This document shows, one piece after another, positions 1,040 through 36,929 of a DNA stretch of 64,000 nt. Origin of the DNA: Planctomycetaceae bacterium (lineage in GTDB: Bacteria; Planctomycetota; Phycisphaerae; Phycisphaerales; SM1A02); the NCBI GenBank assembly GCA_021297815.1, contig JAJTGK010000004.1, positions 542-64,541 of the forward strand, written 5' to 3'. The notes beneath the pieces were generated by a model. It was given only the letters and a program-made list of their open reading frames with translations, made no database searches and was not told the DNA's origin. Every line of letters starts with the position of its first letter. Position 1 is the first letter of the stretch. The translations under genes and the position numbers were made by a program.

Positions 1040-1043
1040 CGCG

Positions 1044-1652
1044 CTACCAGCGCAGCTCGCGCTTCGCCGTGAGCGGCTCTCCCGCAAGCGGCGTGAGCTC
1101 GAGCGCGATGCTGATGTCGGCACCCGCCGCAGGAAGCGTCTTCCATGTGGGCGCGAGACGCACCACATACTGCTCGAGCACGGTGTCGTAGAGCTTCGCC
1201 TCGTCGGCCTGCGTGGCCATGGCGATGTTGAACACGCACGCGGCAGGCTCGGCGCCCGCGCCAGAGACGACGATCCGCAGCGCTCCCGCAGCCCGTGCGG
1301 GCGCGCCGAGGTTGTCGAGCGCATCGATGCGCAGGTCGAGCGTGGGCTTCGTGGGGTCCGATCGGTTTACCTGCGAGAGCGCAGACACCTCGAGCCGCAG
1401 CGCACGATGCTGTGCCATCGGCACAGGCGCGGGAGGCTGCGGAAGCTCGGCGGGCTTCGGCGAAGGCGCGGCAGGCAGCTGCTCGGTCGAGGTCGCCGTC
1501 GCCGTGGGCGCGACGGGGGCCCGCATGGCGGGGTCGCGCGACTGCGTGACGCACCCGGTGGCGAACACGGTGGCCGCGACCGCGACGGCGGCGCGCAGAT
1601 GCCAAGAGCAGGGACGGACGGTTCCAAGGGGCCGCATCGGTGGGAGGTACAT
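1044..1652 (-). CDS. putative lipoprotein, unknown function
   Basis: ATG at 1652 (alternative 1637), TAG stop at 1044. The N-terminus MRPLGTVRPCSWHLRAAVAVAATVFATGC is a signal peptide with a lipobox-like Cys, followed by a Pro/Ala-rich linker and a beta-rich domain. The upstream 173 codons of the track ORF are an Arg/Gly-rich shadow. Confidence 0.6.
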   Translation of the reverse strand: MYLPPMRPLGTVRPCSWHLRAAVAVAATVFATGCVTQSRDPAMRAPVAPTATATSTEQLPAAPSPKPAELPQPPAPVPMAQHRALRLEVSALSQVNRSDPTKPTLDLRIDALDNLGAPARAAGALRIVVSGAGAEPAACVFNIAMATQADEAKLYDTVLEQYVVRLAPTWKTLPAAGADISIALELTPLAGEPLTAKRELRW

Positions 1653-6939: not shown

Positions 6940-7187
6940 CCTCCCTGCTCGCCTGGACACCGTTCCTGCAGCCCGCCCCCGAAGTGGACTCGTGGTGGTG
7001 GCTGCTCATCATCCCGACCGCGGTCGGCATCGCCCTGGCCTACACCTCGATCCGCTCGAGGACGGTCGCCGCGATTCCGCGCGAGGCCCTCGTCATGACG
7101 CTGCAGATCATCGCCGCGGTCGTGGGCATCGCGATCGGGCTCTACCTGCTCGTCATGGTGCTGCTGCCGATGCTGCCCGCCGAGTGA
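6936..7187 (+). CDS. small two-helix membrane protein (83 aa)
   Basis: ATG overlaps the preceding stop. Two clear TM helices (WWWLLIIPTAVGIALAY, IIAAVVGIAIGLYLLVMVLL). Confidence 0.55.
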   Translation: MTSLLAWTPFLQPAPEVDSWWWLLIIPTAVGIALAYTSIRSRTVAAIPREALVMTLQIIAAVVGIAIGLYLLVMVLLPMLPAE

Positions 7188-7755
7188 CGCGGCGCGCGAG
7201 CGCGATCATGGCCCACGCGCAGGCCGCGAAGCACGCGGTGTCGACCAGCACGCCTCCCCAGAGGATGCGGCGCTCGCCCGGGCCGCCCGCGCGGTTTCGC
7301 TGCAGGAAGTCCTCGGCCGCGTACACGATGCTCGTGTCCTGGTCATCGAGCGCGGCCGGCATGGGGAAGTTCTGCTTCGTCGTCGACACGGTCCAGCGCA
7401 GGCTGAGGATCGGTTGCGGGAAGCCGAGCGCGAGCGTCGCCACGCGATAGATCGGCCCTTCGGGGTACGGCGGTGGCGGCGGCTCGGCCCACGCGGGCAG
7501 CTCGCCGTCGACGATCGGCGACGAGAGCGTCTCGTCCATCAGCTGCAGGTTCGACCACCACATGCCGAACACGGCGTCGCGCGAGTTCCACCATCCGTGG
7601 ACGCCGCGATGGATGGTCGTGATGCGCGCGCCGTTGCCGCGCTCGATGAAGAGCGGCGGCAGGAAGGCGCAGGCCAGCGTGGCGAGGAGCCCGATGGCTG
7701 CAGGAATGGCGATCGACGCGGCGATTCGGCGGACGGAAGCCGTCATGCGGCGCAT
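7153..7755 (-). CDS. membrane-anchored hypothetical protein
   Basis: ATG 7755 (MRRMTASVRRIAASIAIPAAIGLLATLACAF is a TM or signal anchor), with a second hydrophobic helix near the C-terminus. The 3' end overlaps 6936..7187 by 35 nt. Confidence 0.55.
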   Translation of the reverse strand: MRRMTASVRRIAASIAIPAAIGLLATLACAFLPPLFIERGNGARITTIHRGVHGWWNSRDAVFGMWWSNLQLMDETLSSPIVDGELPAWAEPPPPPYPEGPIYRVATLALGFPQPILSLRWTVSTTKQNFPMPAALDDQDTSIVYAAEDFLQRNRAGGPGERRILWGGVLVDTACFAACAWAMIALARRVTRRAASAAAP

Positions 7756-15712: not shown

Positions 15713-15742
15713 AGGCCGCCGAAAGGTGGCCTCGCTTCTTTT
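15713..15742 (+). terminator. intrinsic terminator after the third crotonase
   Basis: AGGCCGCC GAAA GGTGGCCT (8-bp stem including one G-U, GNRA loop), followed by CGCTTCTTTT. Confidence 0.65.
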
Positions 15743-15916
15743 GAGCGGTCGCGACTCGCTTCGCTTTCGCGACCTTTCGCGGGGATGGCGCGGGGTTTGA
15801 GCGGTCGCGACTCGCTTCGCTTTCGCGACCTTTCGCGGGGATGGCGCGGGGTTTGAGCGGCCGCGACTCGCTTCGCTTTCGCGACCTTTCGCGGGGATGG
15901 CGCGGGGTTTGAGCGG
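15740..15916. repeat. 56-bp tandem repeat, 3 full copies plus a 9-bp fourth start, each with an internal hairpin
   Basis: Copies start at 15740, 15796, 15852 and 15908. The unit is TTTGAGCGGTCGCGACTCGCTTCGCTTTCGCGACCTTTCGCGGGGATGGCGCGGGG. It contains the inverted repeat GGTCGCGA/TCGCGACC around a 12-nt loop. Copy 3 has one T>C change. Confidence 0.9.
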
Positions 15917-23693: not shown

Positions 23694-24023
23694 CTACGCC
23701 GTCTCGTTGGGTGTTGTGTACGCGAGGTAGATCTGCATGTACGCCGACTGCAGCTCGGGCGAGTAGCCGCGCAGGATCAGGAACATCTGGAAGGCTCCCG
23801 CGCTGTCGATCGCCGCCGGGCTCTGGTCGAGCCAGTCGAGGTACTGCGGATACACGCTTGAGAAGAAGACCCGCGCAAGGTTCAGCCGAGGAAGCCCCCC
23901 GCCAGCGCCATCGCGCGGTGGCGGAGGTGCGCCGCCCTCACCGCGCGCGAAGTCCACGGCGCAGAGCGCCGAGGCGGCACCGAGGCATGCGGCGAGCACG
24001 ATCGTGGACATGGATCGCCTCAT
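23694..24023 (-). CDS. small secreted or lipo-protein (109 aa), unknown function
   Basis: ATG 24023 overlaps the stop of the upstream gene by 4 nt. The signal peptide MRRSMSTIVLAACLGAASA has both a LAAC lipobox-like site and an ASA site. A Gly/Pro linker precedes a Tyr/Gln/Leu-rich C-terminal half. Confidence 0.6.
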   Translation of the reverse strand: MRRSMSTIVLAACLGAASALCAVDFARGEGGAPPPPRDGAGGGLPRLNLARVFFSSVYPQYLDWLDQSPAAIDSAGAFQMFLILRGYSPELQSAYMQIYLAYTTPNETA

Positions 24024-25297
24024 GCCACACCTCCGTTCTTCGCCGCATAGAGCGCGAGGTACTCGTCGGCGCGCGCCCGCGCGCTCGGCAGCTGGCCGAT
24101 CACGCCCGCGACCATCTTGGCCTCGACCGCGTCGAGCGCACGCATGGCGAAGCCGTTGCCCGCGAGGCCCTTGCGCCGCTCGCTGTCGAGCTCGAGGTGC
24201 ATGTGCGCGAAGTACCAGTTGCTCGTCGCCACCGCGTGCGCCCGCAGCGCCGCGGAGGCGATCTCAAGCATGCCGCGACGCTGCGCCTCGTCCTCGCAGT
24301 GCCTGCGCGCCACGCACGACAGCGCGACTGCGGCCCACGCCTTGCGCTCACCCACCGAGGGCTCGACGCCGCCGCCCGCGCGCACCGCCTCGATGAGCCG
24401 GTTCGCCGCGTCGGCGGCAGCCCCCGCATCGCACACCGCGTCGAGCTCGAGCGCGACGACATCGATGCACGCCGCGAAGGTGAGGTTGCGCGACGGCGAG
24501 ATCGACGGGTACTCGGCCAACCGCTCGGCGATCGCCGCCGAGGCGCGGAAATCGTCGCGCGCCGACGCCGCGAGCGGCCGCCACGCGTCGAAGCCCGTCA
24601 TCGGCACCGTGCTGCGCAGCGCGTGGCCACGGGCCCAGTGCGCGAGCGCCCGCGCAAGAAGCACCGTCGGAGTCTCGGAATAGTGCGTCGAGTAGTCGAG
24701 CACCGACGACGCCATGCCGATCGCGTGCGTCGCATGGCCCTGCATGAAGGTCATGTTCGCGAGCTGCGCGTCGCACAGCAGCCGCCAGTCGACGCCGACG
24801 CCGTCGATGCGCAGCGCCTCGCGCAGGCAGCGCACGGCCTCGATATACGAGCCCATCGCCTCCTGTGCGAGCGACTCGATGTAGAGCGCCGCCGCGCGCC
24901 GCGTGGGATTGTCGGCCGCCACGCCCGCGCGCACCGCAAGCCGCACGGCTTCGGAGTAGTCGCGCTCGGCGCGCCGCTCGAGGCTCGCGTTGTAGAGCTC
25001 GGCGAAGCCCATTTCTTCCGTGAGATCGGCCGCGCGCCGCGCATTCGCGGGCTTCATGAGGTGGTCGACGACCGCCTCCACGGGCCAGTCGAGCGCGCGT
25101 GCAAGACCGACCACGAGGTCGATCTTCGGCATGCCGCTCTCTGGAACAAGCCGCCCGGGCTGCCGCCCGAGCGCCATCGCGAGCTCCTTCATCGACCAGT
25201 TGCGATAGGTGCGTGCCAGCGCCTGGAGCTCCTCGAGCCGCTCGCGCGCATGCGCTTCGCGGGCGGCCTCGAAGCCCGATGCATCTTCTGTCAGCAT
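24020..25297 (-). CDS. XRE-like HTH plus helical-repeat (TPR-like) protein, paralog B
   Basis: ATG 25297 with a GGAGG SD 5 nt upstream. HTH-like segment ..WSMKELAMALGRQPGRLVPESGMPKIDLVVGLARALDWP.., followed by about 350 aa of helical Ala/Leu/Arg-rich repeats. Confidence 0.65.
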   Translation of the reverse strand: MLTEDASGFEAAREAHARERLEELQALARTYRNWSMKELAMALGRQPGRLVPESGMPKIDLVVGLARALDWPVEAVVDHLMKPANARRAADLTEEMGFAELYNASLERRAERDYSEAVRLAVRAGVAADNPTRRAAALYIESLAQEAMGSYIEAVRCLREALRIDGVGVDWRLLCDAQLANMTFMQGHATHAIGMASSVLDYSTHYSETPTVLLARALAHWARGHALRSTVPMTGFDAWRPLAASARDDFRASAAIAERLAEYPSISPSRNLTFAACIDVVALELDAVCDAGAAADAANRLIEAVRAGGGVEPSVGERKAWAAVALSCVARRHCEDEAQRRGMLEIASAALRAHAVATSNWYFAHMHLELDSERRKGLAGNGFAMRALDAVEAKMVAGVIGQLPSARARADEYLALYAAKNGGVA

Positions 25298-26694
25298 GGA
25301 ACCTCCGATCTTGCAGCAAGAGCGGCGCATGACGGCGCCGAAGCCGCAGCTGTGTGACAGTCGAACGCCAACTCGCGACGAGTCAAGTGACATTCGACGG
25401 TGAATCTCTCAATCGTGCGCCACGATGAACCGTGGCTCAAGACGAATGCCTTCGATGCGAGCGCCCGCATATCGCGGTCTGACAGGCACTTGGGGAAGCG
25501 CACGCACGCGCTGAGGAACTCGTGCGCATCGGCGTCGTCGAAGTGCACGGAATCTCGCCCGTCGAGCGCCACTCGCACTGCGACTTCGCGCAACTGCAGC
25601 CGGGCGCGGCGCGAACGCAGCAGGACGCGAAGCTCGGGAGGAAGCGCGGGGAGCCCGTCCCGACCGTGCTCCTCGACATCGGCAAGCGCGAGCGAGGCGC
25701 GCGCCGCGAGCTGCGATGCTCGGCGTCGCGCACGCGCGTCGGATGCGACCGCCGCCGAGATGAACATGCGCAATCCGACAGTGGAAATGCGCCAGAACGC
25801 GCGTACCGCGGCCTCGTGGCGCGGCTCGTGCGGCAACATGCACGGCCCGCCCAGATTGGCGCATTCGAGCGCCGCCGACGCTTCATCAAGCGTGTGCAAG
25901 GCCTCGTCGGGCGAGAGCGGCACACCATCGACGCTCCACGGCACGCCTGCGGCGATCTCGTCGTCGATGCGCGTGCGGAGCGACCCGAGTGGCCGCTGGC
26001 CGCATGCATCGACCGAGAGACACTCGGCGCGCATCAGGCGATCGCCGAGCGCACGGAGCGCCGCCGCCGCACCGATCTCGCCGCGCGCCGCGGCAAGCCG
26101 CGCCTCGAGCATGGCATTGTGGGACGGCGTCCTGCACGATGTGAAGTCCGGTCGTACGGCGGCGCGCGAAGCCCCTGCATTCCACACGGCGGACCGCCCG
26201 CCATCGTCCTCGCATGCCAACGCGTCGCGCCGAAGTCCGCACCGAAAGCCATTCGAATGCGCCGCGTGCGCGCGCCGCTCGCACCTTTCGTCGCTGGGCG
26301 TCTGCGGCTCCTGCGCCTCCTGCGCCTCGCGCGTCTCCCATCCCCCCGCGACCAGCGACGAAAGCCCCGCCACATCGTCTGCTTCGCTCGCAGCGCAGGC
26401 CGCGGCGCGCCAGTCGGGGCCATGCACAGCCCGCTCCGCAGCGATCACCTCGGCGGCCGTCGCGGTCGACCAGCCGAGCGCTCGCGCGAGATCGTGCACG
26501 ACGCCAAGCGACGGCACGGCCCGCATGCCCGCGAGGCTGCGGAGGTCGCGCTGCACCGAGTGCGCCGCGTCGCGCGCGCTGCCGCCATGCGTGCCCGCAA
26601 GCAGGGCAAACATGCCGCGCGTGCGCGACACCAGCCGCTTTCCGCAGGGTGGCACAAGGCCCTCGCTCGCTCTCCAGCGAAGGGCCGACTGCAT
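25291..26694 (-). CDS. XRE-like HTH plus helical domain protein, paralog C
   Basis: Shares ..GMRAVPSLGVVHDLARALGWS.. with paralog B. Its stop overlaps B's start region by 7 nt. The start is uncertain (ATG 26694 chosen, alternative 26613). The rest of the 1856-aa track ORF is an antisense shadow. Confidence 0.55.
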   Translation of the reverse strand: MQSALRWRASEGLVPPCGKRLVSRTRGMFALLAGTHGGSARDAAHSVQRDLRSLAGMRAVPSLGVVHDLARALGWSTATAAEVIAAERAVHGPDWRAAACAASEADDVAGLSSLVAGGWETREAQEAQEPQTPSDERCERRAHAAHSNGFRCGLRRDALACEDDGGRSAVWNAGASRAAVRPDFTSCRTPSHNAMLEARLAAARGEIGAAAALRALGDRLMRAECLSVDACGQRPLGSLRTRIDDEIAAGVPWSVDGVPLSPDEALHTLDEASAALECANLGGPCMLPHEPRHEAAVRAFWRISTVGLRMFISAAVASDARARRRASQLAARASLALADVEEHGRDGLPALPPELRVLLRSRRARLQLREVAVRVALDGRDSVHFDDADAHEFLSACVRFPKCLSDRDMRALASKAFVLSHGSSWRTIERFTVECHLTRRELAFDCHTAAASAPSCAALAARSEVPC

Positions 26695-26871
26695 GCGGAG
26701 GGTTGTTGGACAGGCTTCGCGTTCCACGACGCGCAGGGTGCCGAGCGCACGCCGACCCTCAAGCCCCTGCTTCTCGGAATGACGGAAGCGCAGCAGATCG
26801 CACGGGGGCAGCGCACGCGCCTTTCTGCATTCGAGCGGCGAAAGTGCGCGTCCACTGGTTACCCTGACCGT

Positions 26872-27465
26872 GTGATCGTGCCCGACCGCACCGATCGAGA
26901 ACTCATCAACCACGCGCTGCGTGGCGAGGAAGCCGCGTGGAACGCCCTCGTTGACCGCTATGGCGGCCTCGCCTTCTCGACGGCGCGACGCGCGGGCCTG
27001 AGCCGCACCGATGCCGAGGATGTCTCGCAGACGGTGTTCGCGGCGCTGGTGCGTTCGCTCGCATCGCTTCGCGAGAGCGAGCGCCTGGCCGCGTGGATCG
27101 CAACATCCGCGCGACGCGAGGCCTGGCGCGTCGCACGCGTTGCACGCGCGGCACGCTCGACAGGCGACATCGACGACGCCGCCCCGATCGACCCAGATGA
27201 ACACTCCGAAGCCGAGGCGTTCGAGCGCCGCACCTTGGTGACGCGTGCACTCGCCTCGATCGACGATCGATGCCGCGAACTGCTGCAGGCGCTCTTCCTT
27301 GGCGGCCAAGAGACCGCCTACGAGGCGATCGGACGGCGCTTCAACATCACCGCGAACTCGGTCGGTCCGATACGCAACCGCTGCCTCCGACGGCTTCTCG
27401 AGTCGCTTGAGCGCCTTGGCTTCGAACCCTCCACGCTGGGGCTTCCCGCGCGATCGCGCGATTGA
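26872..27465 (+). CDS. ECF-type RNA polymerase sigma-70 factor
   Basis: ..DRELINHALRGEEAAWNALVDRYGGLAFSTARR..DAEDVSQTVF.. (region 2) and ..ETAYEAIGRRFNITANSVGPIRNRCLRRL.. (region 4). GTG 26872 was chosen; the alternative ATG 26779 adds 31 aa. Confidence 0.85.
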   Translation: MIVPDRTDRELINHALRGEEAAWNALVDRYGGLAFSTARRAGLSRTDAEDVSQTVFAALVRSLASLRESERLAAWIATSARREAWRVARVARAARSTGDIDDAAPIDPDEHSEAEAFERRTLVTRALASIDDRCRELLQALFLGGQETAYEAIGRRFNITANSVGPIRNRCLRRLLESLERLGFEPSTLGLPARSRD

Positions 27466-27523
27466 CCTGTACGAAATGCGCCCGAGCAGCCTCTGTACCC
27501 ACGAACGCACGCGTTGACCTCCC

Positions 27524-28204
27524 ATGGCGCCTGTCCCCGACGAACCCCCTCCGCCCGATTCCGACCCACGCGATCCCGAGGCGATCGTGCGCGCCGTGCT
27601 CGAAACGGCGACGGCAGCCGAGGCCGAGGCCGTGCAGCGCGCGGTGGCCTCCGATCCGCAGGCTGCGCGCCTTGCGGGAGTGCTGCGCGATGTGCGGCGC
27701 GCGATCGTCGATGCGCGGACCGAAGCCGCCGACCCGCCTCCTGCATCGCTCTTCGCGCGCGCGAAGGCGCTCTCGTCGCTTCTGCCGACACCACCCTCGT
27801 GGTTCGACCGCATGACGGCGACCGTGCTCGCGAGGATCGACGGCGCCGCCGACGGATTCCTCGGCGGGTTCTCCGCCGCACCCGCGCTGCGCGGGCCGAA
27901 CGACGGCGCGCTCGTCACCTTCGCGCACGCCGACGCCAGGCTCGACCTCTCGGCCTCGCGCGCCGCCGACGGAACGACCTCGTTGCGCATCCAGCTCGAG
28001 ATCACCTCGGACAGCGGCTCGCTGGCGGGCGAGTTCCTCGTGCTCGACGCCGAGAGCGGCGCCGTGATCGCGTCGGGTCCGATCTCGGCCGATGGCGCAG
28101 CCGTCGCCACGCTTCGTGCGGGTGAACCGCCGTCTCGCCGCGTCGACCTCGTCGTGCGCGCGCCGCAAGAAGTGCTGGTCGCCTCGGGGCTCGAACTGCC
28201 ATGA
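27524..28204 (+). CDS. anti-sigma-like hypothetical protein (no TM segment)
   Basis: It sits in the canonical anti-sigma slot, 58 nt after the sigma gene. Helical N-terminal third and beta-rich C-terminal half. No HxxxCxxC motif and no TM helix. Its stop overlaps the CHAT gene ATG. Confidence 0.55.
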   Translation: MAPVPDEPPPPDSDPRDPEAIVRAVLETATAAEAEAVQRAVASDPQAARLAGVLRDVRRAIVDARTEAADPPPASLFARAKALSSLLPTPPSWFDRMTATVLARIDGAADGFLGGFSAAPALRGPNDGALVTFAHADARLDLSASRAADGTTSLRIQLEITSDSGSLAGEFLVLDAESGAVIASGPISADGAAVATLRAGEPPSRRVDLVVRAPQEVLVASGLELP

Positions 28205-30870
28205 GCTCCGCCGCAGCCGCGCAGCGCGCCGCTGCATGCGCCGAGTTCGAGCGACTGGCGCAGTCGAACCCTGAACGCGCGGTCGCCGACGGCGATGCCC
28301 TGCTTGCGCGCATGCGCTCCGCCGACGACGCCGCGAACTTCGCCTACGCGTCGCGCTCGATGGTCAACGCGCTTCCACATGTCGGAAAGCCACACGAGGC
28401 GATCCGATGCGCCGCGGACGCGAGGCGTTTCGCCCGTTCGCGCGCGCCCGCCGAGGCCGCGCGCATCCTGATCGCCGCCATGCATCCGCGCGCGAAGCTC
28501 GGCAATCTGAAGGGCGCGATGCGCGCGGGCGAGCAGGCCGTGCGCGAGTTCACGGCGCTTGGCGAGCACGCGCTCGTTGCGCGCGCCGAACTCAACCTCG
28601 CGAATGTCGCGAAGGCGCTCGGACAGCCGCATCGCGCGATCGATCTGATCGGACGCGTGCTCGCGCAAGGCGATGCGGTCGTGGCGATCAGGGGCCGCGC
28701 GCTCAATGTGCTCGGCGAGGCGTGCGTGCAGGCCGCCGACCTCGCGGGCGCGCGCCGTGCGTTCAGCGACGCGCTTGAAGCGCTCTCGGCGCAGGGTGAG
28801 GGCTTCGCCTGCGCGGTAGTCGCGGGAAACCTCGCCGACACCGCGGCGCGCGCGGGCGACATCGAGCACGCGCTGCGTGGATTTCGCGACGCGCGCGCGC
28901 GATTTGCGGCGCTCGGCGCGCATGCCGAGGCGTGCCGCAACGCCATCGAGGAGGCGATGCTGCTCGAGTCCTCGGGCTTCGTGTCCGATGCGCGCGCGCG
29001 CGCGGCCGATGCATGCGCCGACGCCGACCGACTCAACCTTGCGGCCGAGAGCGCGCGGGCGCGGCTCGTCATCGGTCTTGCAGACCTCGCTTCCGACGCG
29101 CACGCGACGGCGTCGGTCGTGCTGCGCGACGCGGCGCAGCGCTTCGCGGCGTTGGGCGACATGGCCTCGCATGCACTTGCCCTCTCGGCGCTGGCGCGCT
29201 GCCTCGCGGCGTCGTGCGATGCCGATGCGCGCGCGACGGCGCAGCGCGCCGTCGACGCGGCGCGTTCGTCGGGTTCGCCCGCGGAACTCGTGCTCGCGCT
29301 CGCCGCGCAGTGCACGGTGTCGCCGCGCGATGCCGAGGCATGCGCCGCCGCGCGCGAATCGCGTGCGCTCGCCGATCGGACCGACATCACGGCGCTGCGC
29401 GCCGAATCGCTCGGCGCATCGGCGCTTGTCGCGCGTCATGCGGGCCGTTCCGCCGACGCCGTCGCCGACGCTCGCAGCGCGCTCACCGCCATGGCCGCCG
29501 TGCACGGCTCGCTCGCGCTGCCGCGCACGCGCAGCGCGTTCCTGACCCGCCGAGGCGACATGGCGCGCGAGCTCGCCGCCGCCCTCATCGCCGATGGCTC
29601 TCCCGCCGCGGTCGCCGAGGCGTTTTCCGCGCTCGACCGCGCGCGGAGCCTGGCGATCCTCGATGCCATCGCGCGGCCCGACATCGGGCGCGCTCCTCTT
29701 GCAGACAGCGAGGCTGCGGCGCGCGCCCGCGAAATCCACGACCGCATCGACGCCACGCACGCAAGCTCCGCCGCCGTCGCCGAGGCCTTTCGCGCCGACA
29801 TCGCGGCTCGCCGCGCGGAATTCGAGCGTGAACTCGATCGCAGCGACACACGCCCTGCGCCCACGGCGGCCGCGTGCGGCGCGCTTCAGGCGCCATTCGT
29901 CGCGTTCTTCGAGCATGAAGCGCGCGTCCATCTTCTCACGCGCATGCCCGATGGCTCGACACGCGCCGTGCAGCTGCCGCACGACCTCCGCGAACTCGCC
30001 GATGCATGCGCGGCGCTTCATTTCCAGGTCGAGCGCAGGTTGCGCGGCGCGCCTTCGTCGGAGCGCCTGCGACGCACGGCGCGCGAGGCCGAGCAGCAGC
30101 TCGAGCGCATGCTTGCGCCTTCCATGCGCCTTGCGACCGACGGATGGACCGCGACGGTGGTGCTCGCGCCGTCGGCGTCGTTCGCTCGCGTACCGAACGC
30201 GCTCTTCGGCGAGGGATTCGCAGAAGTCCTCGTCGCGCCATCGCTCGAGGTGGCCGCGCTGCTCGGTGATGCGCCGCAAGGCGCACACGCGGCGACGGCG
30301 GCGGTCGTCTCCGTGGCCGACGCGCACGCGCCGTCGATCGCCACCGAAGGCCACATCGTCGCGCGGCGGCTTGCGGCGCGCATGCCGCTCGCGCATCTCG
30401 ATGGCCCTCACGCCACGCGCAGCGCCTTCGCCGAGGTGCTTTCCCAAGCGGCGCTGGCGCATGTCGCTTGCCACGGCGCCTTTCCTGCGGGCGCGCCGAA
30501 CCTCGCGGGTCTGCGGCTTGCCGATGGCTGGTTCACCGCGCGCGACGCACACGCGCTGCCGCGCGCGCCGCGCGAACTCGTGCTCAGCGGCTGCGTGACC
30601 GCCGCCACGGCGCGTCACGACGGAGAAGAGTGGTTCGGCCTCGTGCGCGGTTTCGCCGCCGCGGGCACACGCCGCCTCATCGCCAGCCTCTGGCCCGTCG
30701 ACGACCGCGCCACCACCGCATGCATGGAGCGCCTCTACGACCTCGACGACATGCCATCGGCCGCGCTCCCGCGCCTGGTCCGTGAACTCCGCGCCGAGGG
30801 CGAGCACCCTGCCGTCTGGGGTGCCTTCCGCGTCATCGGCGGCGCGAGTGCCGCATCGCAACCCTCCTGA
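28201..30870 (+). CDS. TPR-repeat plus CHAT-domain (caspase-fold) protease, 889 aa
   Basis: About 550 aa of TPR-like repeats, then the CHAT signatures ..LAHVACHGAF.. (His758, 30472..30474), ..ELVLSGCVTA.. (Cys798, 30592..30594) and ..RLIASLWPVDD... ATGA overlap with the upstream gene. Confidence 0.88.
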   Translation: MSSAAAAQRAAACAEFERLAQSNPERAVADGDALLARMRSADDAANFAYASRSMVNALPHVGKPHEAIRCAADARRFARSRAPAEAARILIAAMHPRAKLGNLKGAMRAGEQAVREFTALGEHALVARAELNLANVAKALGQPHRAIDLIGRVLAQGDAVVAIRGRALNVLGEACVQAADLAGARRAFSDALEALSAQGEGFACAVVAGNLADTAARAGDIEHALRGFRDARARFAALGAHAEACRNAIEEAMLLESSGFVSDARARAADACADADRLNLAAESARARLVIGLADLASDAHATASVVLRDAAQRFAALGDMASHALALSALARCLAASCDADARATAQRAVDAARSSGSPAELVLALAAQCTVSPRDAEACAAARESRALADRTDITALRAESLGASALVARHAGRSADAVADARSALTAMAAVHGSLALPRTRSAFLTRRGDMARELAAALIADGSPAAVAEAFSALDRARSLAILDAIARPDIGRAPLADSEAAARAREIHDRIDATHASSAAVAEAFRADIAARRAEFERELDRSDTRPAPTAAACGALQAPFVAFFEHEARVHLLTRMPDGSTRAVQLPHDLRELADACAALHFQVERRLRGAPSSERLRRTAREAEQQLERMLAPSMRLATDGWTATVVLAPSASFARVPNALFGEGFAEVLVAPSLEVAALLGDAPQGAHAATAAVVSVADAHAPSIATEGHIVARRLAARMPLAHLDGPHATRSAFAEVLSQAALAHVACHGAFPAGAPNLAGLRLADGWFTARDAHALPRAPRELVLSGCVTAATARHDGEEWFGLVRGFAAAGTRRLIASLWPVDDRATTACMERLYDLDDMPSAALPRLVRELRAEGEHPAVWGAFRVIGGASAASQPS

Positions 30871-31003
30871 ACCCGACCGCGGTCACCACATGCCCACCAA
30901 CGATCACCGCCAACATTCCAGGAATGCCGCCACACGCACTTGCGCGTGGGCTGGAGCCGACCACACTCAGGTCGATCCGACGGCGGGCAGGAGAACACGC
31001 TCG

Positions 31004-32623
31004 ATGCGCCACCGACTCGATACCTGTCTCCTCACCACCGCCGTCGCGCTGTGCGCTGCGGCGACGGTGTGCGCCGAGATTCCCGAAGGGACGATCGACA
31101 TCGGCACCCTGCTCATCCGCGGCACCGCGGGCGCCGCCGACGACGCGGTCGTGCGCCTTGCCGCCGCGGGCTACGAGGCAAGCGTCGACGAGCGACTCGA
31201 GGCGATCGGACTCTCGCGGCTGTGCGTCGCGCCTGCGCCAGGAAGCGGCATCGATGTGCCGAGCGCGAAGGACATCCTCGCCGCCATCGCGGGCATCACG
31301 CCGCCCGCAGGCTTCGAGGAGGCCGGCTTCAACTACGAGTACGGGATCGGCGGCGGGCAGACGGGCAGCCTTTGGGTGACGCGTGCGGTGCCGCATCAGA
31401 ATCTCGATTTCAGAAACCAGTACGCCACGCAGGAGATCGGCATCGTCGCAGGCGACTCGTATCCAGGCGGTCCTCCTGGCAATCGCCTGCCGGCGAGCGG
31501 CCGTGGCGTGATCGTGGCGGTGCTCGACACGGGCGTGGTGCCCGTGGGCGACCTTGCGCGCGTGGCGCTGCCGTACTCGTTCGACGCCGTGTCGGGAGAA
31601 CTGCCCTCGACGGGTGCGCCCACCCTCGATCCAGGTGGCGACGGCATCGACAGCGACAACGACGGCGCCATCGACGAGTGTGTCGGGCATGGATCGTTCG
31701 TGGGAAGCCTGATCGCGCTCGTCGCGCCCGAGGCGCGGCAGCTGCACATCCGATGCATCGAGAGCGATGGGCGCACGAGCACACTGCTGATCGCACGCGG
31801 TGTGAACGCGGCGATCGACGCAGGCGCCCATGTGGTCAACATCTCGGCGGTCGTGCCAAACGAACCCAATCTCCTTGGAAGCGTCGTGGACGCGGCGCGC
31901 GACAAGGGCATCGCGATCGTCGCGAGCGCAGGCAATTCCCCTGTCAATCAAAGCACCTATCCCGCAAGCTACCCCTCGGCGGGCAGCGTATCGGTGAGCG
32001 GCCCGAACTTCGGATTTTCCGCCGCGTTCGCGACCTTCAACCGCGAGGTCGACTTCTGCGCGCCAGGCGAGTCGCGCTACATCGGCCCTGCCACCGCGCC
32101 CGTTCCCGTCGACGGCGAGGTGGTCATCGGAATCATCGGCCGCATGCCGCTCGACCCCACGCAGCCGCTCTACTCGACGGCGAGCGGATCGAGCTTCTCG
32201 AGCGCGTTCGCGTCGGGTCTGGCTGCGCTGGTGCGCGGCGCGCAACCCGAGTGGCCAAGCACCGCGGTCCCCTTGGCGTCGATCGGAGCAAGCGTGGTCT
32301 CGCACATCGCCATGACGACCCACGGCATGGAGGTTCCGCGCGAGCAGCAACCGTTTGTCGGCTCGGGCGTGATCGATTGCGCCGCTGCGACGCTCTTCGT
32401 TTCAACCGATACGGTGCCCACGCTGCCGTTCGACATCAACCCCGCGGGTGGAACGGCCTCGGACGGCTCCCCCCGCATCGACGGCGCAGACCTCGCCGCG
32501 CTGCTCTCGGCATGGGGCCCCGTGCTTCCAGGGCGCATCTCGTACGCCGACCTCGACCACAACCGCGTCGTAAACGGCGCAGATCTCGCGGCGCTGCTCT
32601 CGCGCTGGACCACGACGCCCTGA
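31004..32623 (+). CDS. secreted S8 subtilisin-like serine peptidase with dockerin-like tail
   Basis: ATG 31004 with an AGGAG SD. Signal peptide ..LLTTAVALCAAATVCA. Catalytic triad VAVLDTGV, GHGSFVGS and SGSSFSSAFASG. C-terminal modules IDGADLAALLSAWG and VVNGADLAALLSRW. Confidence 0.88.
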   Translation: MRHRLDTCLLTTAVALCAAATVCAEIPEGTIDIGTLLIRGTAGAADDAVVRLAAAGYEASVDERLEAIGLSRLCVAPAPGSGIDVPSAKDILAAIAGITPPAGFEEAGFNYEYGIGGGQTGSLWVTRAVPHQNLDFRNQYATQEIGIVAGDSYPGGPPGNRLPASGRGVIVAVLDTGVVPVGDLARVALPYSFDAVSGELPSTGAPTLDPGGDGIDSDNDGAIDECVGHGSFVGSLIALVAPEARQLHIRCIESDGRTSTLLIARGVNAAIDAGAHVVNISAVVPNEPNLLGSVVDAARDKGIAIVASAGNSPVNQSTYPASYPSAGSVSVSGPNFGFSAAFATFNREVDFCAPGESRYIGPATAPVPVDGEVVIGIIGRMPLDPTQPLYSTASGSSFSSAFASGLAALVRGAQPEWPSTAVPLASIGASVVSHIAMTTHGMEVPREQQPFVGSGVIDCAAATLFVSTDTVPTLPFDINPAGGTASDGSPRIDGADLAALLSAWGPVLPGRISYADLDHNRVVNGADLAALLSRWTTTP

Positions 32624-32632
32624 CGGCGCGGC

Positions 32633-33601
32633 TCAGTACGCCAGGCAATCCTCGATCGCCCGCGACACGCGGTGCGCGTCGGGCAGGTAGTCGAGCTCGA
32701 GCTTGTAGTACGGCATCGTGGTGTCGAAGCCCGCGACGCGCTGCACGGGCGCCTCGAGCTCGAGGAAGCACTTCTCCATGATGCGCGCTGCGATCTCGCT
32801 GCCGAAGCCGCAGGTGAGCGGCGCCTCGTGCACCACCACGCAGCGGCCCGTCTTGCGCACGCTCGCCTCGACCGCGTCCATGTCGAACGGGTAGATCGTG
32901 CGGAGGTCGATGAGCTCGATCGAGCGGCTCGACTTCTCGATGGCCTGCATGCACTGCACCACGCTCGCGCCCCAGCTCACGATCGTGAGGTCGGTGCCTT
33001 CGCACACCGTGCGCGCCTTGCCGATCGGCAGCGTGTACTCGTCCTCGGGCACTTCCTCGCGGAACGCGCGGTAGATGCGCTTCGGCTCGAAGAAGAGGAC
33101 GGGGTCTGGGTCGCGCAGCGCCGACACGAGCAGGCCCTTCGCGTCGTAGGGCGAGCTCGGCATCACGACCTTCAGGCCTGGCGTGTGCGCGTAGATCGCC
33201 TCGGGCGAATCGCTGTGGAGCTCGGGCGCGTGGATGCCGCCGCCCACGGGAATGCGGATCGTCATCGGCACGGTGAACGCGCCGCGCGTGCGGCTGCGCA
33301 TGCGCGCGGCGTGCGAGCAGATCTGGTCGTACGCGGGCCCGAGGAACCCTTCGAACTGGATCTCGGGCACGGGGTGCAGCCCGCCCATCGCGAGGCCGAT
33401 CGAGAGGCCGATGATGCCGCTCTCGGCAAGCGGCGTGTCGAACACGCGCTTCGCGCCGAAGCGCTTCTGCAGGCCCTCGGTGACGCGGAACACGCCGCCG
33501 TTCACGCCGATGTCCTCGCCGAGGAGCACGATGTTCTCGTTCTTCTCCATCTCCTGGATGAGCGCGAGGTTGATGGCCTGGACGAGCGTGAGGTTTGCCA
33601 T
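32633..33601 (-). CDS. 2-oxoacid (branched-chain/pyruvate-type) dehydrogenase E1 component beta subunit
   Basis: MANLTLVQAINLALIQEMEKNENIVLLGEDIG..GGVFRVTEGL..FG..RVFDTPLAESGI.. is a typical E1-beta N-terminus. ATG 33601. Confidence 0.9.
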   Translation of the reverse strand: MANLTLVQAINLALIQEMEKNENIVLLGEDIGVNGGVFRVTEGLQKRFGAKRVFDTPLAESGIIGLSIGLAMGGLHPVPEIQFEGFLGPAYDQICSHAARMRSRTRGAFTVPMTIRIPVGGGIHAPELHSDSPEAIYAHTPGLKVVMPSSPYDAKGLLVSALRDPDPVLFFEPKRIYRAFREEVPEDEYTLPIGKARTVCEGTDLTIVSWGASVVQCMQAIEKSSRSIELIDLRTIYPFDMDAVEASVRKTGRCVVVHEAPLTCGFGSEIAARIMEKCFLELEAPVQRVAGFDTTMPYYKLELDYLPDAHRVSRAIEDCLAY

Positions 33602-33705
33602 GGGGGTTCCGTGTGTGCGACGGGGTTCGGGAAGCGCGAAGGGTAGCAGCGCCATGCGATCGGCTTCAACCGTTCGGGCGGGTGCGGACGCGGATCGAGC
33701 GTGGG

Positions 33706-33741
33706 CAAATAAAGACGGCGCCCCCTTTCGAGGGCGCCGTC
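33706..33741 (-). terminator. strong intrinsic terminator after the cohesin-like/HYR gene
   Basis: On the minus strand, GACGGCGCCC ..loop.. GGGCGCCGTC (10-bp stem, 33714..33723 and 33732..33741), followed by UUUAUUUG. Confidence 0.8.
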
Positions 33742-33793
33742 GGAGTCTGTTCAGAGCGGCTTTCGCCGCGGATCTCACGAGGAGGTCAGGCGA

Positions 33794-35392
33794 TCACCAG
33801 GCCACGCTGCCCGACGACGAGTTGCCCGTACGGACGGGCTGACCCGTCTGGCCCTGGAGCATGAGCGCCATGTCGGTGGTGTCGACCCAGCCGTCGCCGT
33901 TGATGTCGGCGGCGACGAGTTCGCCCTGACCCGTGCGGCGGAGTTCCTTCACCGAGATGCGGGCGCGCGGAGCGTCGCCGGTGTAGCTGCTGCAGCTTTC
34001 GTCAACCGAGAAGAAGTTCACGGCGAGGAAGCTGAGGTCGCCGTTGTTGACCACGCCGCTGGCGTTGAAGTCGGTGTGGGTGCCGCTCGACGACGCGGTG
34101 GTGTTCGGCGACAGCGAGCTGCCACGCTGGCTGACGAACTTACCGAAGTCGAGGATGTCGATCACCGTGTTGCCGTCGGCGTTGCCGACCTTGAGGTACT
34201 CGGAGGCCGAGTCGTTGCCGTCGATCGCAAAGCGGTTGTTGTAGCTGCGACCACCGTGCGTGCCCGAGCCGGCGAGCGCTTCGATGGTGAACTCGCGACG
34301 CAGCGTGTGCAGCGGGTCGCGCACTTCGGCGCAGCCCGAGGCCCAGTCGGTCGAGCCGAGGACCTGGAAGTTCGCCGAACCCTCGACGCGCGAGGTCTCG
34401 ACCGAGCCAGCGTCATCCATGGTCACGGTCTGGATGTCGCTGTCCGAAGCTGCATTCTTCGAGACGGCGATCGAGATGCCGCGGGTGAAGGTGTCGCCAT
34501 TCGCGGAGGCGAACGCACCGCCCTGCGCGGCCGTCACATACACGAGCGAGTCGGCCGAGACGTCGACGGTGCGCGACACGGTGCTCGTGTTGCCGCAGTC
34601 GTCGGTCACGCTCCAGGTGATCGTGGTCACCGAACCGCGCGGCCACTCGGTGAGGTTCGCAGCGCTGTCGCTGCGCGAGTAGGTCACCGTGGGCTCACCA
34701 TTGTTGTTCGCATCGCAATTATCAGTCGCCGTCGGCGAGACATAGGTGTGCGAGGTCGTCGCTGCGCCCTCCGCGTCGGCCCAGTACGACTGGTTTGCGG
34801 GAGTGCCGACGAAGACCGGGTAGGTCTGATCGAACGAAACCTCGGGGAGATTCGTCGCACCCGTGGCATCGAGCGCCACCGCGCCAGTGTTGTCCGAGAG
34901 CATCGAGGAGAACCCATTGCTCGACACGAACTCGACGAGGCCCGTCAATTCACAGAATTCCACGACGGGGGTGAAGGTGAGTGTGAGGATGTTGTCATCA
35001 ACCTCGGCGTTCTCGTTCTCGACTTCGCCGGCGTCGGTGCCATCGGCACCGATAGCGAGTCGATAGATACCCGTGGTGGTGTTGTTGTCTTCGAACAGCT
35101 CGAGGTCGAGGGCCGACCCATCGAAGGTGTAGAAGCCGTTCGCGGTTGCATCGAGCGAGAGCTTGGTCGTGTCGTACTCCAGAACGAACTGGGCACCGAC
35201 AGCGTCCACAGCATCGCCATTCACCGCGACCTTGACCACGACCTTGCCATTGGCGCCAACGGTCGCATCGACAACATTGAGCGCCAGGTTCGACGCCGCC
35301 ATGGCGCCCGAAGTGAGACCCGCGGCGAGGATCGCCGTCGTCAGACACAGACCGCGCGTGCGCGACGCGCTCTTTTCCTTAGACGAGTACAT
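33794..35392 (-). CDS. secreted cohesin-like / HYR-like / dockerin-like multidomain protein (532 aa)
   Basis: ATG 35392 with an AAGGAG SD. Signal peptide ..LTTAILAAGLTSGAMA. Cohesin-like beta domain (..NGKVVVKVAVNGDAVDAVGAQFVLEYDTTKLSL..). HYR-like segment (..TATDNCDANNNGEPTVTYS...WPRGSVTTITWSVTDDCGNTSTVSRTVDV). C-terminal ADINGDGWVDTTDMALML. It is visibly more A/T-rich than its neighbours. Confidence 0.75.
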   Translation of the reverse strand: MYSSKEKSASRTRGLCLTTAILAAGLTSGAMAASNLALNVVDATVGANGKVVVKVAVNGDAVDAVGAQFVLEYDTTKLSLDATANGFYTFDGSALDLELFEDNNTTTGIYRLAIGADGTDAGEVENENAEVDDNILTLTFTPVVEFCELTGLVEFVSSNGFSSMLSDNTGAVALDATGATNLPEVSFDQTYPVFVGTPANQSYWADAEGAATTSHTYVSPTATDNCDANNNGEPTVTYSRSDSAANLTEWPRGSVTTITWSVTDDCGNTSTVSRTVDVSADSLVYVTAAQGGAFASANGDTFTRGISIAVSKNAASDSDIQTVTMDDAGSVETSRVEGSANFQVLGSTDWASGCAEVRDPLHTLRREFTIEALAGSGTHGGRSYNNRFAIDGNDSASEYLKVGNADGNTVIDILDFGKFVSQRGSSLSPNTTASSSGTHTDFNASGVVNNGDLSFLAVNFFSVDESCSSYTGDAPRARISVKELRRTGQGELVAADINGDGWVDTTDMALMLQGQTGQPVRTGNSSSGSVAW

Positions 35393-35696: not shown

Positions 35697-36854
35697 TCAG
35701 TGCCCGTGCGCTGCCTGCGCCTCGGCGTCCATCTGCGCCGCGCGCTCCTGCGCTTCGGGCGGCAGCTGGCTGGGGTCCTGGCCGAGCGAGTGCGTGTGCA
35801 TGGTGTCGCGCTGCCTCACGAGATCCGCGGGGAGCTCGGCGTACATCGCATCGAAGAACTCGCTGCGGTTCGGCGCCGCGATGCCCTCGGCGCGCGCGAC
35901 CGCGTCGGCGTTCTCCTTCTCGACGCGCTCCATGAGCGCCGCTTCCTTCGCGTCGTCCCACAGCTTGCGCGCGGTCATGTAGTTGCGGATGCGCATGATC
36001 GGATCGCGCGCCTTCCACGCGTCGACCTCGGCCTTGTCGCGGTAGCGCGTCGCGTCGTCGGCGGTCGTGTGGTCGCCGAGGCGGTAGGTCACCATCTCGA
36101 TGAACGACGGCTTGCCCGACACGCGCGTGTACTCGGAGGCCTGCTTCACCGCGTACACGGTGGCGAACAGGTCGTTGCCGTCGACCTGCGTGCACGGCAT
36201 GCCGTACGAAAGGCCGCGCTGCGCGAAGGTCGGCGCGGCGCTGTTGATCTTGCTGGGCGTCGAGATCGCCCAGAAGTTGTTCTGGCACACGAAGACCACG
36301 GGGATCTCGAGGTTCGACGCGAAGTTGCACGCCTCGTGGAAGTCGCCCTCGCTCGACGCGCCGTCGCCGAAGAAGGTGCAGGCGATGCGGTCCTTGCCCT
36401 GGTAGCGCGCGGCCATGGTCAGGCCCGCGGCGTGCAGCATCTGCGTGCCGAGCGGCACATAGATCGGCGTCACGAAGTGGTCCTTCGGCATCGCGTTGCC
36501 GCGCTCGTCGCCCATCCAGTGCAGCAGGATCGACTCCTTGGGCACGCCGCGCCAGAAGAGGCCGCAGTTCTCGCGGTAGCAGGTGACCATCCAGTCGTCC
36601 TTGCGCAGCACATAGGCCGCGCCAAGGCTGGTCGCCTCCTGACCCATGTTCTGCGGGTAGGTGCCCATGCGGCCCGAGCGCTGCAGGCGGAAGGCCACGC
36701 CGTCGAGATGCCTGCACGAGACCATCGCCTCGTAGAGCTTCACGAGGTCGGCGTCGGGAATCAGGCCCTTGCCGAGCTTCTCGTCGAAGTTTCCGTGCTC
36801 GTCGAGGATCGAGATGTGGTCGATCTTGGTTTCGTAGGCAGTGGTGATCGGCAT
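35697..36854 (-). CDS. 2-oxoacid dehydrogenase E1 component alpha subunit (TPP-dependent)
   Basis: TPP motif ..FFGDGASSEGDFHEACNFASNLEIPVVFVCQNN.. and ..YRLGDHTTADD... ATG 36854 (MPITTAYE..) is preferred over 36893. Confidence 0.9.
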   Translation of the reverse strand: MPITTAYETKIDHISILDEHGNFDEKLGKGLIPDADLVKLYEAMVSCRHLDGVAFRLQRSGRMGTYPQNMGQEATSLGAAYVLRKDDWMVTCYRENCGLFWRGVPKESILLHWMGDERGNAMPKDHFVTPIYVPLGTQMLHAAGLTMAARYQGKDRIACTFFGDGASSEGDFHEACNFASNLEIPVVFVCQNNFWAISTPSKINSAAPTFAQRGLSYGMPCTQVDGNDLFATVYAVKQASEYTRVSGKPSFIEMVTYRLGDHTTADDATRYRDKAEVDAWKARDPIMRIRNYMTARKLWDDAKEAALMERVEKENADAVARAEGIAAPNRSEFFDAMYAELPADLVRQRDTMHTHSLGQDPSQLPPEAQERAAQMDAEAQAAHGH

Positions 36855-36929
36855 GGCGTGCTCGCGTGTGGCCGCGATTGCGGCGGGCGCCAAGTGTAGC
36901 AGCGGGTGCCGAGCGGCCTGCGCGCCGCG

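Follow-up and report, generated by a model that had tools for sequence, protein, structure and literature searches.

A conserved four-gene cassette of an ECF sigma factor, an anti-sigma-like protein, a TPR-CHAT protein and a secreted subtilase in five bacterial phyla

Introduction

Control of extracytoplasmic function (ECF) sigma factors by caspase-fold CHAT proteases is so far known from studies of defence only, namely of Craspase and of DdvA, which regulates a CBASS-CRISPR island. Here we describe a free-standing cassette of the same kind, encoding an ECF sigma factor, a small anti-sigma-like protein, a tetratricopeptide repeat (TPR)-CHAT protein and an S8 subtilase, in a 64,000 nt stretch of DNA (the window) from a Planctomycetaceae bacterium (GCA_021297815.1, contig JAJTGK010000004.1, positions 542..64,541 of the forward strand). 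In Myxococcus xanthus the ECF sigma factor DdvS is paired with DdvA, a transmembrane TPR-CHAT anti-sigma factor for which cryo-electron microscopy and nuclear magnetic resonance structures were obtained (PMC11506125, PMC6061681). DdvS promoters have the form GTAA-N16-CGT and drive CBASS and CRISPR genes (PMC11506125, PMC6061681). DdvA was described by its authors as the only characterised anti-sigma factor with a TPR-CHAT part, the fused form being found only in Myxococcota and one Comamonas (PMC11506125). In type III-E CRISPR systems an ECF sigma factor (CASP-sigma/RpoE) is controlled by Csx30, a protein that is cut by Csx29 (PMC10028731).

The CalpL/CalpT/CalpS system follows a related course: a SAVED-Lon protease of a type III CRISPR system is activated by cyclic oligoadenylate and cuts a soluble anti-sigma factor, by which an ECF-like sigma factor is freed. 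In a review on ECF sigma factors, carboxypeptidase, subtilase and CHAT proteins are described as conserved beside ECF54 sigma genes, and proteolysis without an anti-sigma factor is proposed (PMC8999054); the neighbourhood of the present cassette was thus noticed before. The actinobacterial ECF54 was placed next to the planctomycetal ECF58, with no anti-sigma factor reported for either (Casas-Pastor et al., 2021). An earlier reading of the window from its letters alone (the sequence-only reading) had proposed a protease-gated sigma switch at this locus and had supposed that no sigma/CHAT module was characterised. The latter was wrong, as DdvS/DdvA (PMC11506125), Csx29/Csx30/sigma (PMC10028731) and the ECF54 context (PMC8999054) had all been published.

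Results and discussion

Four plus-strand genes are kept together in five phyla

The sequence-only reading described a seven-gene island at positions 23694 to 32623, in which four plus-strand genes face three minus-strand genes. All seven are present as open reading frames (ORFs), and the four plus-strand frames were confirmed with their coordinates (Table 1), in a window whose G+C content of about 70% gives rise to many spurious ORFs. Pfam and NCBIfam profile searches confirmed the ECF sigma, CHAT (with weak TPR) and Peptidase_S8 assignments. The island did not hold as one unit: only the four plus-strand genes are conserved together, and the minus-strand trio is confined to close syntenic relatives.

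A homolog search with the CHAT protein returned full-length relatives down to 25-30% identity, and the gene neighbourhoods of six of them were read, which together with the window gave seven gene-called contexts. All seven have one order, in which a sigma factor is followed by a protein of 135-230 aa without Pfam match, a TPR-CHAT protein and a Peptidase_S8 protein. The stop codon of the small gene overlaps the CHAT start by 4 nt in 7/7 of these contexts and in the Acidimicrobiia cassette; the overlap in the window is the ATGA at 28201..28204 that had been noticed before. Two S8-like genes follow the CHAT gene in a Phycisphaera locus (L001, 10692..14208). The order persists among unrelated neighbours, such as SecA/AhpC in L005 and two-component-system genes for P0023, and two paralogous copies lie in different contexts on a single 175-kb contig.

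A scan with one genome per species yielded 80 loci from Planctomycetota, Acidobacteriota (Pyrinomonadaceae, Chloracidobacterium), Chloroflexota, Armatimonadota and one Acidimicrobiia (Actinomycetota, L068). The window proteins were run by jackhmmer against the six-frame ORFs of all loci, and counts were limited to the 73 loci with sufficient flanks. On the same strand as the CHAT gene, the sigma factor was found upstream of it at 68/73 loci, the small protein between the two at 68/73 and the S8 protein downstream at 66/73, so that order and strand are kept beside 90-93% of 73 related CHAT genes in five phyla. Close relatives also keep wider synteny (dehydrogenases, glycosylase), and conservation among them alone therefore proves nothing. 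The adjacency of the four genes, which extends to five phyla and to paralogous copies within one genome, is far beyond chance. Since the trio is confined to loci where the wider synteny is kept, the conserved unit is the four plus-strand genes, a real, conserved and uncharacterised cassette. A Chloroflexota locus (L047, 2643..12683) carries two complete cassettes in tandem on one contig.

The TPR-CHAT protein retains a His/Cys dyad and is predicted to be cytoplasmic

The CHAT domain was detected by Pfam at aa 632-880 (8.5e-26), and matches to TPR families were weak. The AlphaFold2 model (predicted local distance difference test, pLDDT, 84.8; predicted TM-score 0.76) consists of a continuous TPR superhelix (aa 1-547) and a caspase-like domain (aa 566-880), with low-confidence loops at 493-502, 548-553 and 801-808. 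A Foldseek search of this model against the PDB returned separase, DdvA and Csx29. DdvA (8rw5, 8rot) had the top TM-score (0.50; E 3e-12 to 7e-12), and Csx29 structures matched with E 1e-10 to 1e-12.

The catalytic residues described before were found in place: His758 at 30472..30474 (VACHGAF) and Cys798 at 30592..30594 (LSGCVT), together with the SLWPVDD motif. H754, H758 and C798 are invariant in a 13-sequence CHAT alignment, and among the orthologs H758 and C798 are both present in 78/81, the three exceptions being truncated or fragmented. Because the dyad and the nearby motifs are invariant down to 25% identity, their conservation argues for catalysis by the CHAT protein. The small protein and the CHAT protein both lack a transmembrane segment and a signal peptide, and the S8 protein has a signal peptide. 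The sigma factor, the anti-sigma-like protein and the CHAT protein are therefore predicted to be cytoplasmic and the S8 protein to be exported.

The small protein belongs to a predicted anti-sigma family

The 226-aa protein had been read as anti-sigma-like and without a transmembrane segment. Its maximal Kyte-Doolittle value over 19 residues is 1.23, in agreement with the latter, and a hydrophobic segment fit for a membrane helix was found in 0 of roughly 70 family members. The anti-sigma assignment was borne out by family homology, the window protein being tied to the family by jackhmmer and gene position. When 68 aligned members were scanned with Pfam, zf-HC2 was detected in 8/68 (best 2.6e-7) and CarboxypepD_reg in 12/68 (best 8.9e-7), and many members carry the H-x3-C-x2-C anti-sigma signature at the N-terminus (e.g. 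L018, L030, L034, L053, L057). The family profile matched RsiW (6.3e-5), the DdvA N-terminus (2.3e-4), ChrR (3.8e-4) and RslA (5.5e-4) in the PDB. These anti-sigma matches cover profile positions 1-88, corresponding to the class I helical domain, and the C-terminal part matched NOMO-type beta-sandwich repeats (1.1e-9). As judged from these profiles, the small protein is an anti-sigma homolog. The family is common: a library-wide profile search found 1,311 cluster representatives at E ≤ 1e-3, of which 365 reached E ≤ 1e-10. When the small-protein alignment was used for a profile search, the results were dominated by a short Pyrinomonadaceae form.

The AlphaFold2 model of the window protein (mean pLDDT 66.7) comprises helices at residues 18-84, a low-confidence stretch at 90-127 and a confident beta-sandwich at 130-224. 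The near-invariant residues D106 and R123 both lie in the low-confidence linker. Foldseek returned only generic beta-sandwich matches for this model, with E above 1e-3.

The sigma factor and its own promoter region

The product of the sigma gene was matched by Sigma70_r2 (1.5e-8) and Sigma70_r4 (3.4e-4) in Pfam and by the ECF family TIGR02937 (5.8e-20) in NCBIfam. An alternative in-frame ATG at 26779 would extend it to 228 aa. With regions 2 and 4 only and 197-228 aa, it is an ECF (group 4) sigma-70 factor. N-terminal extensions vary among close relatives, and the cross-phylum alignment contains no conserved extra domain that might be inhibitory and cleavable. In region 4 (about 27270..27420) two cysteines are invariant in 15 aligned sigma factors from four phyla (Planctomycetota, Acidobacteriota, Chloroflexota, Actinomycetota), one in 'CRxLL' and one in 'R(A/N)RCL', and the surrounding motif GS(I/V)GPxRxRCL is conserved too. 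This cysteine pair could have a redox or metal role.

Footprinting among close relatives did not reveal a clear conserved promoter before the sigma gene; the sole conserved block, TACCTT...GTG, may be coding. In a subgroup of Acidobacteriota (Pyrinomonadaceae; L034, L037, L046, L049, L059, L060, L064, L077, L083) a sigma70-like TAGACA-N17-TATGCT element was recognised by eye about 60-100 nt upstream of the sigma gene, and the cassette motif described below does not occur in that place. Such a housekeeping-type promoter suggests that the sigma factor of this subgroup is not autoregulated.

A promoter-like motif precedes the anti-sigma/CHAT genes

The anti-sigma/CHAT genes are preceded by a bipartite motif of strict spacing with the family consensus GTATTTTT-N14-C(A/T)CTGT; other phyla have it before S8 and nearby secreted-protein genes as well. 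Gapped-dyad counting over all loci failed to give a promoter, as the GC-rich background dominated. The motif was first recognised by inspecting low-GC loci, where GT(C/A)TTTTT-N14-GC(A/T)CTGT is visible between CHAT and S8. A loose regular expression gave 76 matches, about 65/76 of them exactly 28 nt long. A position weight matrix was then built from the best site between the sigma and small genes of each locus, and with it a related site was recovered at this place in most loci. These include Planctomycetes, in which the site is degenerate (GTA(T/C)N4-N14-C(T/A)C). Scanned with the spacer columns zeroed and a threshold of ≥ 16 bits, the loci contained 83 sites versus a mean of 1.6 in shuffled sequence, and when the spacer was changed by 1-3 nt only 0-7 sites reached the threshold. 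Three classes of sites lie outside the training of the matrix: between CHAT and S8 (18 sites), downstream of S8 on the plus strand (16) and upstream of sigma on the minus strand, in divergent orientation (11). Since these 45 sites were not used in training, they provide independent support. Behind the extra sites lie genes for signal-peptide proteins of 550-840 aa with CHRD and FG-GAP repeats or DUF4214 (one also with Calx-beta).

The window itself holds a degenerate copy between the sigma and anti-sigma genes (Table 1). The pattern GTACGRA-N15-CTC has one match per close-relative locus, which is the site between the sigma and small genes in L001/L002/L008, L006, L007, L009 and L021. In L003/L004 the match is at 7126..7150; a related GTACGGAC-N14-CACTTG was seen by eye near 7276..7303 of L003, at the 3' end of the sigma gene. 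We infer that the motif is the promoter of the cassette sigma factor. Downstream of the motif, the spacer between the sigma and small genes of L026 (about 1040..1120) contains a short tandem repeat (CTCAACCTCAAGCT, several copies).

The exported S8 subtilase

The S8 protein has the complete triad that had been reported and in addition the oxyanion Asn (D175/H229/N311/S397), as in S8 subtilases, and these four residues are kept in 61/61 aligned cassette S8 proteins. Its signal peptide was likewise recovered, as a signal-peptide-like N-terminus followed by a propeptide-like segment. By inspection, both features are present in nearly all S8 orthologs. In other phyla the promoter-like motif is found before S8, which fits the proposal that the subtilase is an output of the switch.

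The last ~60 residues of the window S8 protein (about 32440..32620) contain two dockerin-like repeats, DGADLAALLSAWG and NGADLAALLSRW, which were not called by Pfam. On the minus strand at 33794..35392 lies a gene for a 532-aa signal-peptide protein with Cohesin (1.9e-5) and Dockerin_1 (3.8e-7) matches. It is placed between the E1-beta (32633..33778) and E1-alpha (35697..36893) dehydrogenase genes, where the G+C content drops to 0.63. In the related locus L003 the E1-beta and E1-alpha genes are direct neighbours, and the cohesin gene looks like an insertion. The S8 protein might be tethered by a cohesin-dockerin pair, with the cohesin protein encoded 1.2 kb away.

Comparison with described systems

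The cassette and DdvS/DdvA share an ECF sigma factor, a zinc-type anti-sigma domain and a separase/craspase-like TPR-CHAT part with a His/Cys dyad. DdvA is both the best whole-chain structural match of the CHAT model and, with its N-terminus, among the best profile matches of the small protein. The two differ in architecture. DdvA is one chain with an anti-sigma domain, a transmembrane helix and a periplasmic TPR-CHAT part and needs RseP, whereas the cassette distributes these functions over two genes with a 4-nt overlap, whose separate, coupled products are predicted to be cytoplasmic; a CarboxypepD_reg sandwich replaces the transmembrane helix and linker of DdvA. The promoters differ as well (GTAA-N16-CGT for DdvS versus GTATTTTT-N14-CACTGT for the cassette), as do the targets (CBASS/CRISPR versus predicted secreted proteins) and the distribution (the fused form in Myxococcota and one Comamonas versus the cassette in five phyla).

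With Craspase the cassette has in common a cytoplasmic TPR-CHAT protease, a separate small protein and an ECF sigma factor, and cutting of the small protein is proposed here as well. The small protein of the cassette is a class I anti-sigma homolog. The cassette lacks Cas7-11, CRISPR RNA and a CRISPR array. Its activator cannot be target RNA. CalpL/CalpT/CalpS follows the same logic, in which a signal-activated cytoplasmic protease acts on a soluble anti-sigma factor of an ECF-like sigma factor, but CalpL is a Lon protease and not of the caspase fold, and the cassette has no SAVED or CARF domain.

All neighbour domains named for ECF54, carboxypeptidase(-regulatory), subtilase and CHAT, occur in the cassette, of which there is one in Actinomycetota. 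CarboxypepD_reg is found in 12/68 small proteins with CHAT and Peptidase_S8 adjacent, a likeness in gene neighbours. ECF54 was described as actinobacterial and without an anti-sigma factor, whereas the 'carboxypeptidase' protein of the cassette carries a predicted anti-sigma domain. The recognition of this protein as a candidate anti-sigma factor, the cross-phylum spread, and the motif with its predicted targets are new here.

A split switch in the cytoplasm is the most likely function

The cassette most likely represents a cytoplasmic, split DdvA-like switch with secreted proteins as output, and we consider it fairly probable that it acts as a protease-gated ECF sigma switch wholly within the cytoplasm. 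The sigma factor would be made constitutively, independently of its own activity, and would be kept inactive by the N-terminal class I anti-sigma domain of the 226-aa protein. The latter would be translationally coupled to the TPR-CHAT protein, to whose TPR arm it probably binds through its C-terminal beta-sandwich and its conserved linker. A cytoplasmic signal may be read by the ~550-aa TPR superhelix, upon which the His758/Cys798 site would cut the anti-sigma protein, possibly in the flexible linker near the near-invariant Arg123. The freed sigma factor would take RNA polymerase to GTA(T/C)N4-N14-C(A/T)C(T)GT promoters. In the window such a promoter would drive the anti-sigma/CHAT/S8 operon, thereby resetting the switch and leading to export of the subtilase, while in other phyla separate motif copies would drive S8 and the large secreted proteins. 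The core idea of the sequence-only reading was reasonable, and it is now better grounded as to the anti-sigma role and S8 as an output.

Several points weigh against this reading. That the 226-aa protein binds the sigma factor and is cleaved is what we infer from sequence, and the docking, the cut site, the signal and the assignment of the motif to the sigma factor are likewise predictions. The window protein itself had no match in Pfam, NCBIfam, PADLOC or PHROGs; the N-terminal part of its model is only moderately confident; and it has no Cys in the anti-sigma region and no H-x3-C-x2-C signature, and is therefore a non-zinc derivative of the class I anti-sigma family that has lost its Cys. 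The small proteins of Pyrinomonadaceae with ~165 aa lack the anti-sigma helices, and the cassette is still kept. They start at a conserved LMRxDDSxDAP motif (L024, L025, L033, L035, L038, L052, L062, L066, L067, L073), and the gap behind the sigma gene is too small to hide the helices, so that the conserved core of the family is the linker and beta-sandwich and not the anti-sigma domain. With regard to the motif, counts between the sigma and small genes are circular because the matrix was trained there. In the window the loose pattern was not enriched (4 matches versus 6.3 expected), the copy at 27469..27496 is not significant alone, and there is no convincing site before S8, which is probably co-transcribed with the two preceding genes. 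Furthermore, the purpose of pairing a cytoplasmic sensor with an exported protease is hard to see.

Rather unlikely, in our estimate, is that the TPR-CHAT protein serves as a non-catalytic or self-cleaving sensor or scaffold, a co-anti-sigma factor that frees the small protein upon ligand binding or autoproteolysis. DdvA, its closest structural relative, was proposed to cut itself in trans within a dimer, and the three low-confidence loops of the CHAT model would be compatible with this reading. An inactive sensor is at odds with a dyad and surrounding motifs that are invariant down to 25% identity, and because the anti-sigma domain is here on a separate polypeptide, self-cleavage of the CHAT protein alone would not free the sigma factor.

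The helix-less short family members and the varying N-terminal extensions of close sigma relatives would fit an unlikely alternative, in which, as was proposed for group ECF54, a true anti-sigma factor is absent and the sigma factor is itself the target of CHAT or S8. The small protein would then serve as an adaptor or as a subunit that recruits the substrate. Against this, a zinc-type anti-sigma domain is recognisable in most small-protein family members, the sigma factor has no conserved extra domain to serve as a cleavable inhibitory segment, and the S8 protein, being exported, cannot act on a cytoplasmic sigma factor.

A role in anti-phage defence or conflict, after the manner of Craspase or CalpL/CalpT/CalpS, is also doubtful; a phage protein would in that case be sensed by the TPR arm, and the defence would be started by the sigma factor. 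All characterised cytoplasmic protease/anti-sigma/ECF trios are linked to defence, and the patchy spread across phyla with paralogs suggests mobility. Against this, PADLOC gave no match for any cassette protein, the predicted targets are secreted proteins and not known effectors, and the flanks are housekeeping genes in conserved synteny. As the sequence-only reading had it, neither CRISPR nor gasdermin nor nucleotide-signalling genes were found: the window has no spaced repeat array, no nucleotide-signalling gene lies nearby and the Pfam scan found no SAVED or CARF domain; there was no gasdermin match among the seven products (Pfam, PADLOC), which sets the locus apart from gasdermin/protease systems, and no defence-model match to Cas7-11/gRAMP among the cassette proteins, which sets it apart from type III-E Craspase loci.

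That the seven genes are an accidental neighbourhood without functional coupling, as the wider synteny in close relatives might suggest, is very improbable as a whole: this remains the likely description of the trio, but it is refuted for the four plus-strand genes by their order in unrelated contexts and across five phyla, next to their overlapping stop and start codons and the shared motif.

Returning to the split cytoplasmic switch, a broader proposal can be made tentatively: the cassette may be a widespread, self-contained, CRISPR-independent and non-defence cytoplasmic module, counted in no fewer than five phyla and in over 1,000 protein clusters at 50% identity, in which the TPR-CHAT protein reads an intracellular protein or peptide cue, cuts the soluble anti-sigma factor and starts a secreted-protein programme (subtilase and large adhesin-like proteins). 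Such a module would be related to the Craspase and DdvA switches as their ancestor or cousin and would use a promoter code of its own. It would be a free-standing form of the same logic, carried out wholly in the cytoplasm by the products of separate genes and frequent among soil and water bacteria. The cassette offers a candidate for the anti-sigma factor described as missing in surveys of the ECF54 context, a candidate cleavage region and a candidate promoter with predicted targets. If true, the uses of bacterial caspase-like proteases would widen from immunity to ordinary gene regulation, and a compact orthogonal protease/sigma/promoter set would become available for synthetic circuits.

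Neighbouring genes and other features of the window

Table 1. Positions of the cassette genes, the promoter-like motif and the divergent minus-strand genes in the window.
Feature	Coordinates	Strand	Length	Basis or remark
ECF sigma gene	26872..27465	+	197 aa from GTG 26872	Sigma70_r2, Sigma70_r4, TIGR02937
Promoter-like motif copy, degenerate	27469..27496	+		GTACGAAATGCGCCCGAGCAGCCTCTGT = GTACGAAA-N14-CTCTGT; 28 nt before the anti-sigma-gene ATG
Predicted soluble anti-sigma-like protein	27524..28204	+	226 aa	jackhmmer family, position, AlphaFold2 model
TPR-CHAT caspase-fold protein	28201..30870	+	889 aa	Pfam CHAT, dyad, AlphaFold2, Foldseek
Secreted S8 subtilase	31004..32623	+	539 aa	Peptidase_S8 2.8e-22 (Pfam), signal peptide
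First trio gene	25291..26694	-	~440-467 aa
Second trio gene	24020..25297	-	425 aa
Third trio gene	23694..24023	-	109 aa	signal peptide

At 15740..15916 of the window, a 56-bp unit is repeated in 3.2 head-to-tail copies with 99% identity, which is not a CRISPR array.

The minus-strand trio had been read as part of the module, and this did not stand. Of the loci scanned by jackhmmer, the window, L003/L004 and L021 alone contain it, and it is also on the P0016 contig. Neither the Phycisphaera locus L001, with 58% identity, nor L009 nor any distant or paralogous cassette has it. It occurs where the synteny of Glu dehydrogenase, adenine glycosylase and E1 dehydrogenase is also kept, and no convincing motif lies upstream of it. 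The trio is a lineage-specific neighbour outside the conserved cassette. The 177-bp upstream region that it was said to share with the cassette is found with the chosen start codons, and the sigma ATG at 26779 would shorten the spacer to 84 bp.

Within the trio, the stop and start codons overlap at 24020..24023 and 25291..25297, and the 109-aa product has a signal peptide, both as reported earlier. The trio products had no match in Pfam, NCBIfam, PADLOC or PHROGs, and a PDB sequence search gave no match for the 425-aa protein. The helix-turn-helix ascribed to the two ~430-aa proteins was not found, as no such Pfam family reached E 0.1. Their supposed paralogy was not seen by BLASTP (E 0.14, a 16-aa patch) and appeared weakly in a profile comparison, in which hhalign of small ortholog alignments gave a probability of 49.6% and E 1.7e-4 over the N-terminal ~80-165 columns only. 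When compared with the same two relatives, the product of the second trio gene shows 61-62% identity versus 31-33% for that of the first, and the two genes, as judged from these identities, evolve at very different rates.

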